A stretch of DNA of 64,000 bases from a virus (IMGVR_UViG_3300043449_002191:64001-128000); one strand, 5' to 3'. Shown: positions 1 to 27,116, numbered from the stretch's first letter. Program-made: numbers and translations. Notes: a model not told the origin generated them from the letters alone.

Positions 1-112
1 AACCATTTATTTCTATTGCGGATAACACCATAAAGGTATATCCCACTACAAGGACGGCAAGCGATATTAGCAAGATGGAAGCTTTCAAAAATGCTTTAAT
101 AATCTTATTCAT
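1..112 (-). CDS. Membrane protein, cargo of the cassette array (runs off window edge)
   Basis: ATG at 112 overlaps the WEPEDE* junction. Reads MNKIIKAFLKASILLISLAVLVVGYTFMVLSAIEING, hydrophobic and open to position 1. Not in ORF track. Confidence 0.7.
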   Translation of the reverse strand, partial: MNKIIKAFLKASILLISLAVLVVGYTFMVLSAIEING

Positions 113-314
113 CTTCAGGCTCCCAAGCGTTTACGCCTTCTAGGTCCGATCCTAGCGCTTTAACTTCTGGTGGTAACATTCCTAAATCTTCCATAGCCAA
201 TAATAATTCACTAGCAACCATTTCCCAGTATTCTTTTGGGTCTCTCTCAGTATAGTCCATTCTCGGTGTCATAATAACTTGAGCCATATATTTCACCATT
301 TCACTTCGTTTCAT
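105..314 (-). CDS. Array repeat-family protein R5 (MKRSE-GMLPP-WEPEDE)
   Basis: MKRSEM start, LGMLPP core, WEPEDE* end shared with four neighbours; GAGGT SD upstream of ATG 314. Confidence 0.85.
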   Translation of the reverse strand: MKRSEMVKYMAQVIMTPRMDYTERDPKEYWEMVASELLLAMEDLGMLPPEVKALGSDLEGVNAWEPEDE

Positions 315-561
315 CTTCAACCTCTTTTAAAGAATCCAAAAACTTCCAGAATATATGTAAGTGAAATTTACTAGGGCTCACTGGAGAGTATTCACCACAG
401 TCTGGGCATCTATAGGCCACAATTCCATCATATATGCCAAGAAAGCCGCCGTCAATGCCTATTTCGCGTTTCCAGACATATGGGGGACTATAGTTGTGTT
501 TAAGATCATCTGGAATTTCCTCACCAATCCAATTTGAATTACATATAGGACAGTTACTCAT
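301..561 (-). CDS. Small zinc-ribbon protein, copy 1 (array cargo)
   Basis: CPIC...CPDC; near-identical to 1229..1489; ends EDETK*. Confidence 0.85.
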   Translation of the reverse strand: MSNCPICNSNWIGEEIPDDLKHNYSPPYVWKREIGIDGGFLGIYDGIVAYRCPDCGEYSPVSPSKFHLHIFWKFLDSLKEVEDETK

Positions 562-775
562 CTTCAGGCTCCCATAAGCATTCGCTAGATACTAAAGTAT
601 TACCGTTATCTTGATCTATATACCTAATTGTTTCTGGGGGTAGCATGCCAGCTTTTTCTATTTCTAATAATAAGCCACTAGACATGGTAATTCTATCCTG
701 TTCAGTAGAACAAGTGCTAGTATCATTATCTTTTATCCAGTCTGCTAGGATTTTAAGGATCTCACTTCGTTTCAT
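554..775 (-). CDS. Array repeat-family protein R4
   Basis: MKRSEI...AGMLPP...WEPEDE*. Confidence 0.85.
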   Translation of the reverse strand: MKRSEILKILADWIKDNDTSTCSTEQDRITMSSGLLLEIEKAGMLPPETIRYIDQDNGNTLVSSECLWEPEDE

Positions 776-1007
776 CTTCAATCCCTTCGTTTAAAGCCGC
801 AATCAATGCATCTGCATATTTTAGCGCTGCTGCTGCTGTTAGTTTACCAGTGTCTTGATAGTCAGGAAAAAAGCTTGCGTTATGTGATATTAGCCCTTGC
901 ATCGCCAAAGCTGCAAAATGCTCACGTTTAGTTAAGCCAACGCATTGACCTACACCGCCATTATCAGCAAATGTTACTCCTATTGGTTCATGTGGGTTAG
1001 TTTTCAT
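762..1007 (-). CDS. Conserved phage hypothetical protein (GLTKREHFAALAMQG...ADAL family), array cargo
   Basis: Resembles the widespread phage G(M/L)TxRxxFAxxAMQG...ADA(M/L) small proteins; start moved to ATG 1007 at the junction; ends EDETK*. Confidence 0.8.
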   Translation of the reverse strand: MKTNPHEPIGVTFADNGGVGQCVGLTKREHFAALAMQGLISHNASFFPDYQDTGKLTAAAALKYADALIAALNEGIEDETK

Positions 1008-1242
1008 CTTCAGGCTCCCACTCATACACATCTGGCAATTCCCCTAGAGACTTTCCATCCATGCTGGTCACTTGGTAAGTTTCCAATGGAGGCGGCAACA
1101 TACCGAACCCCTCAATCATATCTAGTAATCTAGATGCTCTACGCTTAAAGGTAGCCTCTTCTGTCTCATTACCGTGTTTACCATTCACTTCAGGGTCGGC
1201 CAGTTCATCAGCCATTAAATCTATCATCTCACTTCGTTTCAT
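997..1242 (-). CDS. Array repeat-family protein R3
   Basis: MKRSEMIDLMAD...FGMLPP...WEPEDEN*. Confidence 0.85.
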   Translation of the reverse strand: MKRSEMIDLMADELADPEVNGKHGNETEEATFKRRASRLLDMIEGFGMLPPPLETYQVTSMDGKSLGELPDVYEWEPEDEN

Positions 1243-1489
1243 CGTTGACCTCTTTTAAAAAATCCAAAAACTTCCAGAATATATGTAAGTGAAATTTACT
1301 AGGGCTCACTGGAGAGTACTCGCCGCAATCTGGGCATTTCAAAGCCACAATACCATCATATATGCCAAGATAGCCGCCGTCAATACCTATTTCGCGTTTC
1401 CAGACATATGGGGGACTATAGTGATGTTTAAGATCATCTGGGATTTCTCCACCAATCCAATTTGAATTACAATTAGGACAGTTATTCAT
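1229..1489 (-). CDS. Small zinc-ribbon protein, copy 2 (array cargo)
   Basis: CPNC...CPDC; paralog of 301..561; ends NDETK*. Confidence 0.85.
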   Translation of the reverse strand: MNNCPNCNSNWIGGEIPDDLKHHYSPPYVWKREIGIDGGYLGIYDGIVALKCPDCGEYSPVSPSKFHLHIFWKFLDFLKEVNDETK

Positions 1490-1691
1490 CTTCAGGCTCC
1501 CATAAGCATTCGCTAGATACTAAAGTATTGCCGTTATCTTGATCTATATACCTAATTGTTTCAGGGGGCAGCATACCAGCCTTCTCCATCTCCTTTAAGA
1601 CAAGGACCATTCTATCTCTAGTGGTATAACTATTCGTTGTGAACTTAATATAGGTATCAGCCATTAAATCTAACATCTCACTTCGTTTCAT
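1482..1691 (-). CDS. Array repeat-family protein R2
   Basis: MKRSEMLDLMAD...AGMLPP...WEPEDE*; C-terminal half identical in protein to R4. Confidence 0.85.
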   Translation of the reverse strand: MKRSEMLDLMADTYIKFTTNSYTTRDRMVLVLKEMEKAGMLPPETIRYIDQDNGNTLVSSECLWEPEDE

Positions 1692-2226
1692 CTTCAGACT
1701 CCTTCTCATTGGCTATCTCCACAGCAAATAATAGATTTAGTTCTTGTTGGGCAGCAACATAAGCAGCATCAGCAGCAGCGGCAGCAGCATAAGCAGCAGT
1801 AGCAGCGGCATCAGCAGCATAAGCAGCAGTAGCAGCAGCGGCAGCAGCGGCAGCAGCATAAGCAGCATAAGCAGCAGCATAAGCAGCATAAGCAGCAGTA
1901 GCATAATAAACAAGTTGCTTATTATTTTCTTTAATTATTTTTAGATAGAGTTCGGCAGCGTTAATTGCTTTTCTTGGTCTTTTGTCATTAGGATACTTTT
2001 CTTCAAAGACATGTAAAACAGATGATGCACATTTTAATGCAAATTTAACATTCTGTTGTTTTGTAAACAAGTTTGTAATTACCCAAATTTTGTCTGAATA
2101 ACTAATATTTTCTAATAATACAAAATCTTCAATATTATTATCAAAATCTTTGTAATGTTCTAAAAAATTATCAAATCTATTTTTGCAAGGATTTAACTTT
2201 TCTATAATTTCTTTATTAATTTTCAT
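1678..2226 (-). CDS. Imm5-like phage protein with Ala/Tyr-rich tail (array cargo)
   Basis: FALKCASSVLHVFEEKYPNDKRPRKAINAA motif followed by (AAY)n/poly-Ala; start ATG 2226 at junction; ends EDETK*. Confidence 0.7.
   Translation of the reverse strand: MKINKEIIEKLNPCKNRFDNFLEHYKDFDNNIEDFVLLENISYSDKIWVITNLFTKQQNVKFALKCASSVLHVFEEKYPNDKRPRKAINAAELYLKIIKENNKQLVYYATAAYAAYAAAYAAYAAAAAAAAATAAYAADAAATAAYAAAAAADAAYVAAQQELNLLFAVEIANEKESEDETK
1751..1904 (-). repeat. Low-complexity GCT/TAT codon repeat encoding Ala/Tyr tract
   Basis: Tandem gcagca/taagcagca units on + strand. Confidence 0.9.
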
Positions 2227-2443
2227 CTTCAGGCTCCCAGTCAACTGCTACTCTAAATGTATAATGCTTTCCTTGGCCATCCTCAATTGTGGGCTTCATG
2301 CCTCTATTCTCAAATTCACCAAGAATAAAGTCAACCATTTTTCTTGGGCTAGACGATATATTGCTGTCAATGTACTCTGCAAAGATATTAGCCACAGCCT
2401 CCACCATCTCACTACGTTTAATTTTTCCTACTCCTCGATACAT
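2216..2443 (-). CDS. Array repeat-family protein R1 (divergent, 5'-most copy)
   Basis: IKRSEM...RGMKPT...WEPEDEN*; start uncertain. Confidence 0.75.
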   Translation of the reverse strand: MYRGVGKIKRSEMVEAVANIFAEYIDSNISSSPRKMVDFILGEFENRGMKPTIEDGQGKHYTFRVAVDWEPEDEN

Positions 2444-2637
2444 GATACCCCCAAAGAGCTTTTAATTCTGTAGCAGATCTTTCCTGATTCTTTATCAAAA
2501 TACCGCTCTACATCATCCCAAATAGGTCTTTCATCTTCTATTATATCTTTTTTCTTGTCTAAGTTCAGGTGTATTGGCCCAGACTCAATACAACCCGAAG
2601 TCAAAAGCGCTGCTAAGACTATCACTTCCTTAAGCAT
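2428..2637 (-). CDS. Small putative lipoprotein (paralog of 2622..2828)
   Basis: Lipobox-like LTSG-C; HLNLDK and ERYxDxExGxxCY...GxSC shared. Confidence 0.75.
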   Translation of the reverse strand: MLKEVIVLAALLTSGCIESGPIHLNLDKKKDIIEDERPIWDDVERYFDKESGKICYRIKSSLGVSCIEE

Positions 2638-2828
2638 GAAATTCCTCTAGCGTTTCTAACAGTATAGCAAACCACGCCGTATTCCTCGTCAATATAACGC
2701 TCAAGGTCAGATGTTCCTCTGCTTTCTTGTTTAATTCTTTTGTCTAGGTTTAAATGTTTACGGCTAAACTTTTTGCCACAACCAGAAAACAGCATAAGCC
2801 CAATAATTACCATTACAATTTTTTTCAT
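2622..2828 (-). CDS. Small putative lipoprotein
   Basis: MKK + hydrophobic stretch + LFSG-C lipobox; shared motifs with 2428..2637. Confidence 0.75.
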   Translation of the reverse strand: MKKIVMVIIGLMLFSGCGKKFSRKHLNLDKRIKQESRGTSDLERYIDEEYGVVCYTVRNARGISCLRK

Positions 2829-3319
2829 GGCCGCACTCCTTTAACCAAAGTCAAAAATGAAAGCTTTTCATTCAGGCACATTTTTGTAGTATCTGCTAGA
2901 ACAAACTCTTTTGGAGTCTGGGGATAATATACATCACCTTCGATAACTTTATCAATTACAGTCATGTAAATCTTATCAGTCATAGGGAGAGTCTTTTCAT
3001 AGATAGCAGCCCCACCGATAACAAAAACTTCACCTGTTTTATCTAGACCTTTAGCCAACTCAATGGCACTTTCAATGGAATCCACAAACTTAAGATTCTC
3101 GGTCTCTTTTATAGCTTTGGGTTTAGAGGTGATGACAATGTTCATGCGATTCTTTAGGGGTGATTTAATAGACTGGAAGGTCTTTCTGCCCATAATAACT
3201 ACATGGCCCGTAGTCCTAGCTTTAAAGTAAGCCAGCTCTTCAGGGATATACCATGGGATAATTCCGCCACGTCCGATAACACCATTTTTAGCCATGCAAA
3301 CAATATGAGAAAGCGTCAT
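2825..3319 (-). CDS. folA: Dihydrofolate reductase
   Basis: NGVIG..G.IPW, VIMGRKTFQSI, PLKNRMNIVIT, VIGGAAIY, GDVYYP. Confidence 0.95.
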   Translation of the reverse strand: MTLSHIVCMAKNGVIGRGGIIPWYIPEELAYFKARTTGHVVIMGRKTFQSIKSPLKNRMNIVITSKPKAIKETENLKFVDSIESAIELAKGLDKTGEVFVIGGAAIYEKTLPMTDKIYMTVIDKVIEGDVYYPQTPKEFVLADTTKMCLNEKLSFLTLVKGVRP

Positions 3320-3763: not shown

Positions 3764-3847
3764 TTAATTCCAAAAGTCGTTGTAATACCACCAATCCAAA
3801 GTCATACCAGAAAAAAGTACAATCATTAGTATAATTGCGTATTCCAT
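3764..3847 (-). CDS. Putative 27-aa membrane peptide
   Basis: MEYAIILMIVLFSGMTLDWWYYNDFWN; GGAG SD and TAATG overlap with upstream gene. Confidence 0.5.
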   Translation of the reverse strand: MEYAIILMIVLFSGMTLDWWYYNDFWN

Positions 3848-4488
3848 TATTTCTCCAAAGACTTTCTCAGGTTATCTGTTTCCAATATTACTCTTTCTTT
3901 ACTAAAGTCTAACTTTAATATTTGACAATTTTCATATCTAGGAAAGCTATCGTATTGACTTGCATCAGAATCAAGCAAAGCACATAAAAGCATAGTTATG
4001 TGTACTTGATGAGAAAAAACCATGATGTTGCCTTTAATACGACCCATCATGTAGTCCAGCTTCAATTTATTAACAAAAGTGACTGCTCTAGTGTAAGTGT
4101 CGGCTACGCTTTCGCCATTTTTAAAGCGGTAATAGAATTTGCCGTATCTGTCACGCTTTTCCAAGGTATCTTCAATATCAAGCTTATCTTTAAAATTTTT
4201 CCACTCCTGCTCTCGTATAAGAGCCTCCACATTAACAGTCTTAGCTTTAAGACCTTGAGTAGCAAGTTCATAAGTTTCCATTGCTCTTTTATAAGGGGAC
4301 ACGTAAATATGCACCTCAGAGTCATTCACCTTTCCCAAATCTCTCATAAGGTAATAGCCAGCCTCAATGCTCTGAATTCTACCTTCTTGGGTCAACGAGA
4401 TGTTTTGATCTAGCTCAGGGTAATGCTCATTATTTTTTTGCCTAACATTTCCTTCGGATTCACCGTGTCTAATTAAATAAATTTTCAT
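3847..4488 (-). CDS. Histidine phosphatase (phosphoglycerate mutase-like)
   Basis: YLIRHGESEGN, VSPYKRAMET, IREQEW, GESVAD, VFSH. Confidence 0.92.
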   Translation of the reverse strand: MKIYLIRHGESEGNVRQKNNEHYPELDQNISLTQEGRIQSIEAGYYLMRDLGKVNDSEVHIYVSPYKRAMETYELATQGLKAKTVNVEALIREQEWKNFKDKLDIEDTLEKRDRYGKFYYRFKNGESVADTYTRAVTFVNKLKLDYMMGRIKGNIMVFSHQVHITMLLCALLDSDASQYDSFPRYENCQILKLDFSKERVILETDNLRKSLEK

Positions 4489-4517
4489 AATACCCAAACC
4501 TCTTTTACAATTTTAAA

Positions 4518-7308: not shown

Positions 7309-7527
7309 TTAATCCTCCCACTTATATTTATTTTCAATCCAAGCAAATGCTTCTACCCCATGAGGTATTACTTTAGTCCGAATGGGCGGCGGAACCATCC
7401 CCACCATAGATTCACAATGAGTCAATACAATTTCAGCCAATTCGTCAGAGTTAATATCATCACCTTGTCCTTCAAGGTATGTATCAATTGCCATTTTAAG
7501 CACCTTTAAAGCCTCGTCCCTTTTCAT
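7309..7527 (-). CDS. Divergent orphan member of the MKRSE/GMLPP/WEPEDE family
   Basis: MKRDEAL...VGMVPPP...KWED*. Confidence 0.75.
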   Translation of the reverse strand: MKRDEALKVLKMAIDTYLEGQGDDINSDELAEIVLTHCESMVGMVPPPIRTKVIPHGVEAFAWIENKYKWED

Positions 7528-26051: not shown

Positions 26052-27116
26052 TTATGATAATGCTTTTTCTTCAATCTTTTTGAGGAGTTCTTGCTGGAGA
26101 CCTTCGTCATCACGAATTGCCGTCAAACAAGCAACAAGACCACGGTAGCTGTTTTCGCCAATTTTGTAGGTTACGTTATTTGGTCGCTCAATGATACCCA
26201 TGTTTTTAGCCAATGTAAAGATCTCTTCATACTGATTGATGATACCTTTGTTGTAGTCCAGAGTAAACTCAGCAGTTCGGCCAGAGAACCCAACCGATGA
26301 CTCTTCAATCCTAAAACGAATTTTATGGCCAGTTTTTTGCGCTTTGTTCATAAAGTCTACTACAGATTCATCAGAAAACTCTTCGCCATCCAATGTAACT
26401 TTACCTTCTTTTGATTTATTAGGCTCAGTATAAGCAAAGAACTCAAACATATGTTTTGTAGCCCAAGAAGCAGCCATCTTAACCGTTTTACCACGCATCT
26501 GTTCTTTCATATCCATTTCTGCACGGATATGGGCAGTACAAACAAGCGCAATGTTATACTTACGGATAACTGGCAAGATCATCATTAACCCGTCTTTTAA
26601 TGTAAGGGCTTGGTCACCAATCTGTTGAGTAAGAATTGTGTCAGCGTTCTGAGTCCTGCGACCAACAATATTAGAAAGAGAGTCGATGATGACTAATTTA
26701 ATTGGAGCGCCTTCTTGACACATAGCTGCAATCTCGCCAGCAATACGGTCAAAAATATGCTCAGGCTGATTCACATCATAAGTCAAAAAGCGATCTTCAT
26801 CAATTCCCCATTTAGCCAGTGAAGAGCTGTTAGATTGGAACTTACTACGCATTTCCGTATCAAACTTAATAGCAATAGCTTCTGGGTCTGATTTATGTAA
26901 CCCTCCAATTAAGGCATTCATCATGATTGATTTACCTCCTTTTGGTGGACCATATAAAAGCATGGACATACCAAAAGGGAGTCCGTTTCCTGCTGTAGCA
27001 AAAGTCCAGTTTACGGATGGACTCGGAGTTTTGAGGCAATTTTTCATTGCATCATCACCTTTGCTAACATCCACAGCACCTTCTAAATTTCTAAGTTTTG
27101 TAAGCCATTTACTCAT
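26052..27116 (-). CDS. recA: RecA/UvsX-like recombinase
   Basis: YGPPKGGKS, FDTE, LVIIDSL. Confidence 0.88.
   Translation of the reverse strand: MSKWLTKLRNLEGAVDVSKGDDAMKNCLKTPSPSVNWTFATAGNGLPFGMSMLLYGPPKGGKSIMMNALIGGLHKSDPEAIAIKFDTEMRSKFQSNSSSLAKWGIDEDRFLTYDVNQPEHIFDRIAGEIAAMCQEGAPIKLVIIDSLSNIVGRRTQNADTILTQQIGDQALTLKDGLMMILPVIRKYNIALVCTAHIRAEMDMKEQMRGKTVKMAASWATKHMFEFFAYTEPNKSKEGKVTLDGEEFSDESVVDFMNKAQKTGHKIRFRIEESSVGFSGRTAEFTLDYNKGIINQYEEIFTLAKNMGIIERPNNVTYKIGENSYRGLVACLTAIRDDEGLQQELLKKIEEKALS

Follow-up and report, generated by a model that had tools for sequence, protein, structure and literature searches.

Ends of a small protein-coding gene family as putative crossover points in a shuffled phage gene array

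Integron cassettes are tandem, co-oriented small genes that look promoterless and are split by a repeated unit. It has long been asked whether phage mosaicism arises through conserved linkers or through illegitimate recombination, and clear examples of linkers are rare. The locus described here lies at the start of a 64,000-nucleotide stretch of viral DNA (the window, C1:64001-128000 of the virus record IMGVR_UViG_3300043449_002191) and contains five copies of one small gene family, R, that alternate with five cargo genes. It resembles integron cassettes in having tandem, co-oriented small genes with a repeated separator, but the separators here are themselves genes. The array carries recurrent junction strings and biased codons, and both cargo and R halves have been exchanged, with breakpoints at three motifs. 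These patterns probably reflect non-site-specific recombination over short homologies, located in the three constant blocks of a small protein under selection. It would reassort the protein's two variable segments (V1 and V2) and swap neighbours while the stop, Shine-Dalgarno (SD) sequence and start codon in the gene's ends keep the products translatable.

The PeSLs of T4-type phages are non-coding promoter plus stem-loop terminator elements that secure transcription, and mini-circles have been demonstrated for them (Arbiol et al. 2010, PMC2839356). As with PeSLs, the repeats are short and sit in a large phage's hyperplastic small-gene region, their copies appear to recombine without an integrase, and ORFans are inserted, deleted and replaced while expression is, in our case presumably, kept. 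The repeat described here differs in being the coding end of a protein gene that would secure translation, and the repeat-bearing gene is itself shuffled. No joints of the PeSL mini-circle type are listed among the assembled contigs. Membership in the PeSL group was rejected because the repeats show no excess of promoters or stem-loop terminators and lie inside coding sequence.

The locus is also similar to Botstein-Campbell linkers as two sources summarise them (PMC2839356, PMC3029335), in that short conserved boundary sequences are shared between phages. The crossovers fall in an R-to-cargo junction string (J1), a cargo-to-R junction string (J2) and the GMLPP motif in the middle of R. The linker here differs in that it is a protein-coding gene, present in multiple copies and diversifying fast, and has three sites of swapping. 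Linker or boundary sequences cannot be found at most mosaic boundaries (PMC3029335). Exchange of target recognition domains, or domain movement, in the HsdS specificity subunits of restriction-modification systems of Type I (Furuta et al. 2011, PMC3077401) is alike in that variable segments within a gene are reassorted at conserved in-frame flanks, also between loci. R is nevertheless unrelated to HsdS and only ~70 residues long, its V1 and V2 represent distinct types of segment, and neighbours, too, are moved by the outer flanks. The T-even internal protein (ip) loci, as described in PMC2839356, are likewise small variable phage genes that stand in tandem, have conserved flanks and are highly plastic; their flanks are promoter-based, and no sequence relation to R was found. 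We found no description of a protein-coding linker system or of a similar small-gene family in the literature covered, which excludes most subscription papers.

The virus record is complete, 157,341 bp long with direct terminal repeats, and the sequencing run that contains it best is a freshwater metagenome. Its genes include a primase, a DnaB-like helicase, a DNA polymerase and a UvsX-like recombinase. The alternation of five R genes with five cargo genes noticed in a preliminary description of the window is a real array, and all of it lies on the minus strand. In transcription order it reads R1, Imm5-like gene, R2, Zn1, R3, GLTK gene, R4, Zn2, R5 and a transmembrane (TM) gene. Leftward extension of the contig, as that description had suggested, places the end of the array ~90 bases beyond the window, where a non-R gene follows the TM cargo. 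Two more R copies in the genome are both solo (window 7309-7527 and C1:62197-62394). The features, by window coordinates, are as follows.

2216..2443, minus strand: R1, 75 residues from the ATG at 2443, with the KRSE motif from 2422; without J2
2223..2239, minus strand: J1 at the R1 3' end, with the GGAG SD and ATG (2226) for the Imm5-like cargo
1678..2226, minus strand: cargo 1, Imm5-like, 182 residues with an Ala/Tyr repeat; Pfam Imm5_like, E = 6e-6
1678..1692, minus strand: J2 at the R2 5' end, with the TGA stop for cargo 1; 14-nucleotide overlap
1482..1691, minus strand: R2, 69 residues; the same 69 residues occur in L239 with other cargo on both sides
1563..1586, minus strand: internal swap site E..GMLPP of R2; the 368-nucleotide duplication begins at 1592
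1486..1502, minus strand: J1, R2 to Zn1, exact string match
1229..1489, minus strand: cargo 2, Zn1, a CxxC...CPxC protein of 86 residues; Zn-ribbon matches sub-threshold only
1229..1243, minus strand: J2, Zn1 to R3, exact string match
997..1242, minus strand: R3, 81 residues; N-half common to G001 R copies, C-half different
1004..1020, minus strand: J1, R3 to the GLTK cargo, exact string match
762..1007, minus strand: cargo 3, GLTKREHFA family, 81 residues; phrog_2201, E = 1e-10; 11-nucleotide direct repeat at its flanks
762..776, minus strand: J2, GLTK cargo to R4, exact string match
554..775, minus strand: R4, 73 residues; C-half identical to that of R2 as protein, N-half unrelated
635..658, minus strand: E..GMLPP swap site inside R4; the duplication has its boundary at 664
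558..574, minus strand: J1, R4 to Zn2, exact string match
301..561, minus strand: cargo 4, Zn2, 86 residues, 90% identical to Zn1
301..315, minus strand: J2, Zn2 to R5, exact string match
297..664, minus strand: duplication copy 2, 368 nucleotides, 91% identical to 1225-1592 (R C-half, Zn gene and next R start)
105..314, minus strand: R5, 69 residues; N-half joined to another C-half in P0010
109..125, minus strand: J1, R5 to the TM cargo, exact string match
1..112 and on to C1:63912, minus strand: cargo 5, TM gene, hydrophobic, 66 residues; last unit, no R after it
7309..7527, minus strand: solo diverged R copy outside the array
26052..27116, minus strand: UvsX/RecA-like recombinase, candidate enzyme with a putative role

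The two junction types overlap the reading frames that they join. J1 (TGGGAGCCTGAAGATGA) comprises the last codons of R and holds both GGAG and ATG. It had been claimed to stand at every R-to-cargo junction, and it does: exact copies begin at 109, 558, 1004, 1486 and 2223 (5/5; 0.13 expected), a count reached in 0 of 100 shuffles. J2 (GATGAAACGAAGTGA) is one G followed by the first codons of R and recurs exactly at 301, 762, 1229 and 1678 (0.10 expected). A core common to both junction types was likewise noted correctly: GAAGATGA lies in the same phase in J1 and J2 and is present at 8/9 R junctions, and GATGA covers the start codon at 9/9. Outside the array, the corresponding counts by rough gene calls are 5/125 adjacent gene pairs for GATGA at a start codon and 1/125 for GAAGATGA. 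The tail DETK* on unrelated cargo genes is the -1-frame reading of the first codons of R, and it comes automatically because the overlap with R is 14 nucleotides. The expectation that every cargo ends this way holds for four cargos; the TM cargo ends in ...DRENT* and is followed by a non-R gene. Similarly, J2 opens R2 to R5 exactly but is missing from R1.

Strings of this kind also occur beyond the array. Two non-R genes 3' of it on the minus strand have junction-like starts (C1:63717, GATGAAACGTAAAGT; C1:63044, GAATCTGAAGATGAG; L001 13717 and 13044), which are perhaps relics of lost R copies. The J1 17-mer is found at the 3' end of an unrelated gene of ~420 codons ending in WEPEDE(V/I)AGY (L002, L004-L006, L010, L012, L014, L015 and L019), and this is taken as coincidence. 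A metagenome scan with J1 alone returned mostly unrelated matches. Loci found by DNA in this way were kept out of the codon and architecture counts; the half-swap comparison described below does use the R proteins from them.

Codon usage at the R ends was counted in 63 R genes from loci picked by protein, not DNA. Ser4 is AGT in 57/60 AGY codons (background 57%, and 50% in Ser-Glu pairs), and the T of this codon in AGT-GAR makes the upstream TGA stop. Where Asp precedes the last Glu, it is GAT in 26/28 (background 64%), and GAT-GA makes the downstream ATG; Asn at this position is AAT in 8/8 and makes the ATG as well. The Glu after Trp is GAG in 27/49 (background 32%) and makes the SD. The bias holds in phages with GC content of at least 42%, where AGC is commoner (15 AGT versus 1 AGC). 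These genes are phylogenetically non-independent samples, but most pairs are only 30-45% identical, so that shared ancestry alone is unlikely to be the cause. The commonest overlap on both sides of R is -14 (24/63 upstream, 17/63 downstream). Judged from these counts, synonymous codons at the R ends are biased to supply the upstream stop and the downstream SD and ATG, and we infer translational coupling in vivo.

Three relatives place the same or similar R genes next to different neighbours. In L239, from an independent JGI sample, R2 is identical over 69 residues (97% at the DNA level) but has a Zn gene (94% to Zn2) in place of the Imm5-like gene upstream and an unrelated hydrophobic gene in place of Zn1 downstream. 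The shared tract begins at TGAAGATGA inside J2 and stops at the last base of J1. Contigs of runs X2 and X3 have the same arrangement and are counted with L239 as one. In L240, the R2 N-half (86% at the DNA level) is joined at GMLPP to another C-half, and a new cargo follows at J1. The third relative, the 155-kb genome G001 (recombinase 73%, downstream anchor gene 76%), has at the orthologous locus Zn, Imm5-like, R, a 151-residue gene, R, an extended R and R, with the same anchor gene at the end, and it includes an exact J1/J2 fusion without cargo. Each cargo in the window is flanked by an exact direct repeat of the core of 6-12 nucleotides (12 nucleotides, CTGAAGATGAAA, for the Imm5-like gene), and a crossover between such flanks would therefore give an R-R fusion of the G001 type. 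J1 and J2 are common to G000, G001, L156, L239, L240 and others; in L156 an Imm5-like gene stands between R copies inside a run of 8-11 R-type genes.

Gene-content differences between L239, L240, G001 and the window thus map to the repeats, and gene order is not fixed among relatives; a fixed order is what the preliminary description had named as contrary to its proposal. Its idea that R genes serve as recombination platforms for swapping cargo is borne out for crossovers at R ends that keep their signals, both in these relatives and in the codon bias, and is not supported for strict alternation as a general design. Sequence comparisons support the view that R ends are crossover points for cargo exchange and that translation signals would survive it.

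Some related arrangements may be recorded here. At J1/J2, abundant relatives in run X4 (L001 11500-17500, contig depth up to 662) show several joints and loose ends that lead to different neighbours, among them an R-R fusion at L001 15002. The Ala/Tyr tandem repeat of the Imm5-like gene varies in length (window 1750-1900, minus strand; L157 5700-5960; L156 5550-5710), with proteins of 182, 200 and 179 residues among relatives.

The preliminary description missed both an internal swap at GMLPP and selection on R at the protein level. The 368-nucleotide duplication in the window (1592-1225 versus 664-297, 91%) runs from the middle motif into the next MKRSE, and R2 and R4 therefore share only their C-halves. 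Other proteins recombine the same units: P0010 has the R5 N-half with another C-half, and P0005 has an R1-like N-half with an R2-like C-half. Among 236 R proteins, 23/27 pairs with V1 at least 60% identical have V2 at most 30% identical, and the reverse is true of 47/50; the sample comes from clustered libraries, where pairs alike in both halves are under-counted. In a linkage test on 223 R proteins, we asked whether, given at least 70% identity in one quarter, another quarter is at least 50% identical. This is the case for 84-94% of pairs within one segment (46% for C2 to C1) and for 5-12% of pairs across GMLPP. In the Zn control family, 9/9 pairs with similar C-parts are also similar in their N-parts. 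Clustering cannot create discordant R pairs, and the one-half-only count and the within-segment control are independent of it. R thus appears from these alignments to be shuffled at a third, internal site, E..GMLPP, besides its two ends. Separately, some R N-halves are fused to non-R C-terminal parts, some without a KRSE start (L239 205-459, L240 583-822, L157 6892-7329 and L153 501-827), which suggests that new genes may have arisen by crossover near the middle motif.

The R family is large: a profile search gives 1,126 clusters at 90% identity and 2,201 at 50%, and thousands of variants occur in phages of ~30-49% GC. An alignment of 118 members has the conserved blocks MKRSE, L...E..GM.PP and WE.E with an invariant W, and the architecture alternates constant and variable parts (MKRSE - V1 - E..GMLPP - V2 - WEPEDE). 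The constant blocks amount to ~12-27 nucleotides of shared DNA repeated at each copy. The R copies scanned have no Pfam or PADLOC match (window copies for Pfam), the best PHROG match among the 118 members has E = 0.002, and tblastn of R3 against cultured phage records reaches only E = 0.2. Foldseek against PDB and BFVD returns nothing at E <= 0.001; among other structure searches, the best VIA match has Z 4.5 and the best ESM Atlas score is 0.81. These blank searches leave room for a remote family. In the AlphaFold model (pLDDT 84), R folds into a pair of packed helices with a beta arm, and a homodimer prediction (score 0.32 against a mark of 0.42) is counted neither way. Codons of the middle motif are near background and differ almost without constraint, a sign that selection acts at the protein level, and R appears to be a selected, folded protein. 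As a best guess, it may be an accessory protein that interacts with the host and has variable surfaces subject to diversifying selection. Rare fusions (P0129, P0254, P0255) include two R domains in one 172-residue protein, R with PF08719, and R with PF08303/PF13671. Pure R-R-R(-R) tandems, mostly with 14-nucleotide overlaps, occur in other phages or contigs (L098 265-1082, L041 2-784, L121, L186 and L190).

In the mechanism that we favour, phage genomes would recombine, internally and with one another, in a homology-directed and non-site-specific way, with the crossovers placed in the three constant blocks. Exchange at GMLPP would reassort V1 and V2, and exchange at the ends would insert, remove, duplicate or substitute whatever gene lies between two R copies. 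The R 5' end carries a TGA stop (from AGT-GAR) for the upstream gene that it overlaps by 14 nucleotides, and the 3' end provides the downstream gene with the GGAG SD and with an ATG that GAT-GA supplies. Because GAAGATGA is in the same phase in both ends, recombinants would keep intact overlapping reading frames. The enzyme may be a phage UvsX-like protein, for which the genome has a gene with a putative activity in shuffling, or the reaction may be short-homology annealing; a search of the genome for an ERF recombinase found none.

Several observations weigh against this mechanism. R is solo in 14/30 protein-selected loci, and homologues of the Imm5-like and Zn genes have no R within 5 kb in 42/42 loci found by cargo search, which means that cargo capture may be a by-product. 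The exact shared tracts at cargo flanks (6-17 nucleotides) are short for RecA-type recombination, although in the T4 system patches of <50 bp are cited as enough (PMC2839356), and the middle swap site varies at wobble positions. No excised circles or rearrangements within one population were seen in the assembled contigs that were available. The non-independence of the codon counts and the under-counting of R pairs alike in both halves count on the same side. Much of this would fit ordinary paralogue expansion, in which recombination at conserved motifs is generic to tandem repeats and the coupling signals and captured cargo are unselected by-products. Direct R-R joints also outnumber R-gene-R arrangements in the 30 loci (19 versus 9), overlaps of -4, -1 and -8 are common in the genome anyway, and overlap alone yields DETK*. 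We nevertheless regard this explanation as unlikely, since the synonymous bias sits at the stop, SD and ATG bases and hardly in the middle motif, persists at high GC, and is accompanied by nearly universal half-swapping at one site, unlike in the Zn control.

A dedicated site-specific, integron-like system, in which an unrecognised recombinase, possibly R itself, excises and inserts cassettes at the GAAGATGA core, would account for the sharp breakpoints, the direct repeats at cargo flanks and homology that is short for RecA-type enzymes. It is very improbable given what the complete genome holds. As the preliminary description had reported for the window, neither an integrase nor attC was found among the families searched and the nine junctions folded, nor was a resolvase: tyrosine integrase PF00589 (control 14/14) and serine recombinase PF00239 each have 0 matches, the nine junction windows fold no better than shuffles (z -0.4 to +1.6), Rfam has 0 matches in the attC test, and the GTTRRRY core occurs 39 times versus 42 expected. 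Promoter-like sites, which bear on Pc/attI, are at chance level (30 versus 27.8), promoters and terminators show no excess, and no junction has a terminator-like site; the junctions lie within overlapping coding sequence. In addition, the third swap site is unrelated and degenerate in sequence, and R has 70 residues and no recombinase among its structural matches. Integron membership was rejected, as IntI, an attC hairpin and a GTTRRRY core are all missing. Chimeric assembly at short repeats can hardly be credited at all. The assembly is metagenomic, and two junctions within the 91% duplication are unphased by unitigs; but the repeats, at 15-17 nucleotides, fall short of the 31-mer. In run X1, which is possibly the source sample, single unitigs span 7/9 junctions without a mismatch (contig depths 71-108). 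The five R copies also differ from one another, and the same junctions occur in independent datasets.

Recombination at the constant blocks of R therefore remains our preferred explanation, with a narrower scope than first proposed. Whole records carry 1-6 R matches. The solo R genes, the R-R tandems and the R-free cargos indicate that strict alternation is one outcome and not a rule. Such alternation is special to this genome, and relatives have mostly solo R or R-R tandems. R homologues are often solo; the junctions recur in relatives, and the solo copy at C1:62197-62394 itself begins with J2. The cargos are ordinary phage accessory genes, and we see in the array less a dedicated cassette device of the integron kind than a gene family that shuffles and also picks up its neighbours.

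Other genes lie close to the array. Just upstream of R1 are tandem paralogous small lipoprotein-like genes (window 2428-2637 and 2622-2828, minus strand); both match phrog_3224, and the second weakly matches the Cor superinfection-exclusion family (E = 0.006). Dihydrofolate reductase-like and histidine-phosphatase-like (RHG motif) genes, identified by eye only, follow at 2825-3319 and 3847-4497 (minus strand). A small stand-alone LuxR-like helix-turn-helix protein is encoded at C1:59715-59939 (L001 9715-9939, minus strand), and its two best genome matches are metagenome-assembled genomes of Bdellovibrionia (69% and 56%). It is the sole host hint, a weak one, and could also be a mimic of a host regulator.

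By analogy, the shuffling seems to work like PeSLs and Botstein linkers, yet its linker is a protein-coding gene from a large undescribed family. The linker is nameable and its breakpoints are mapped to the base; its ends carry a stop for the preceding gene and a ribosome site for the following one, so that simple reporter and deletion assays could put the linker model to the test. The analysis also brings to light a family of >2,000 divergent small proteins of phages, which the Pfam and PHROG searches made here did not pick up, with variable halves reassorted almost freely, a pattern typical of proteins in host-virus arms races. Tentatively, R loci may be a selected diversity-generating system without a dedicated enzyme, in which a V1 x V2 library on a constant 70-residue scaffold serves many uncultured phages, possibly those of Bdellovibrionota, against host targets that vary, and in which the dual-coded ends would double as universal adaptors that take up unrelated accessory genes and keep them expressed.

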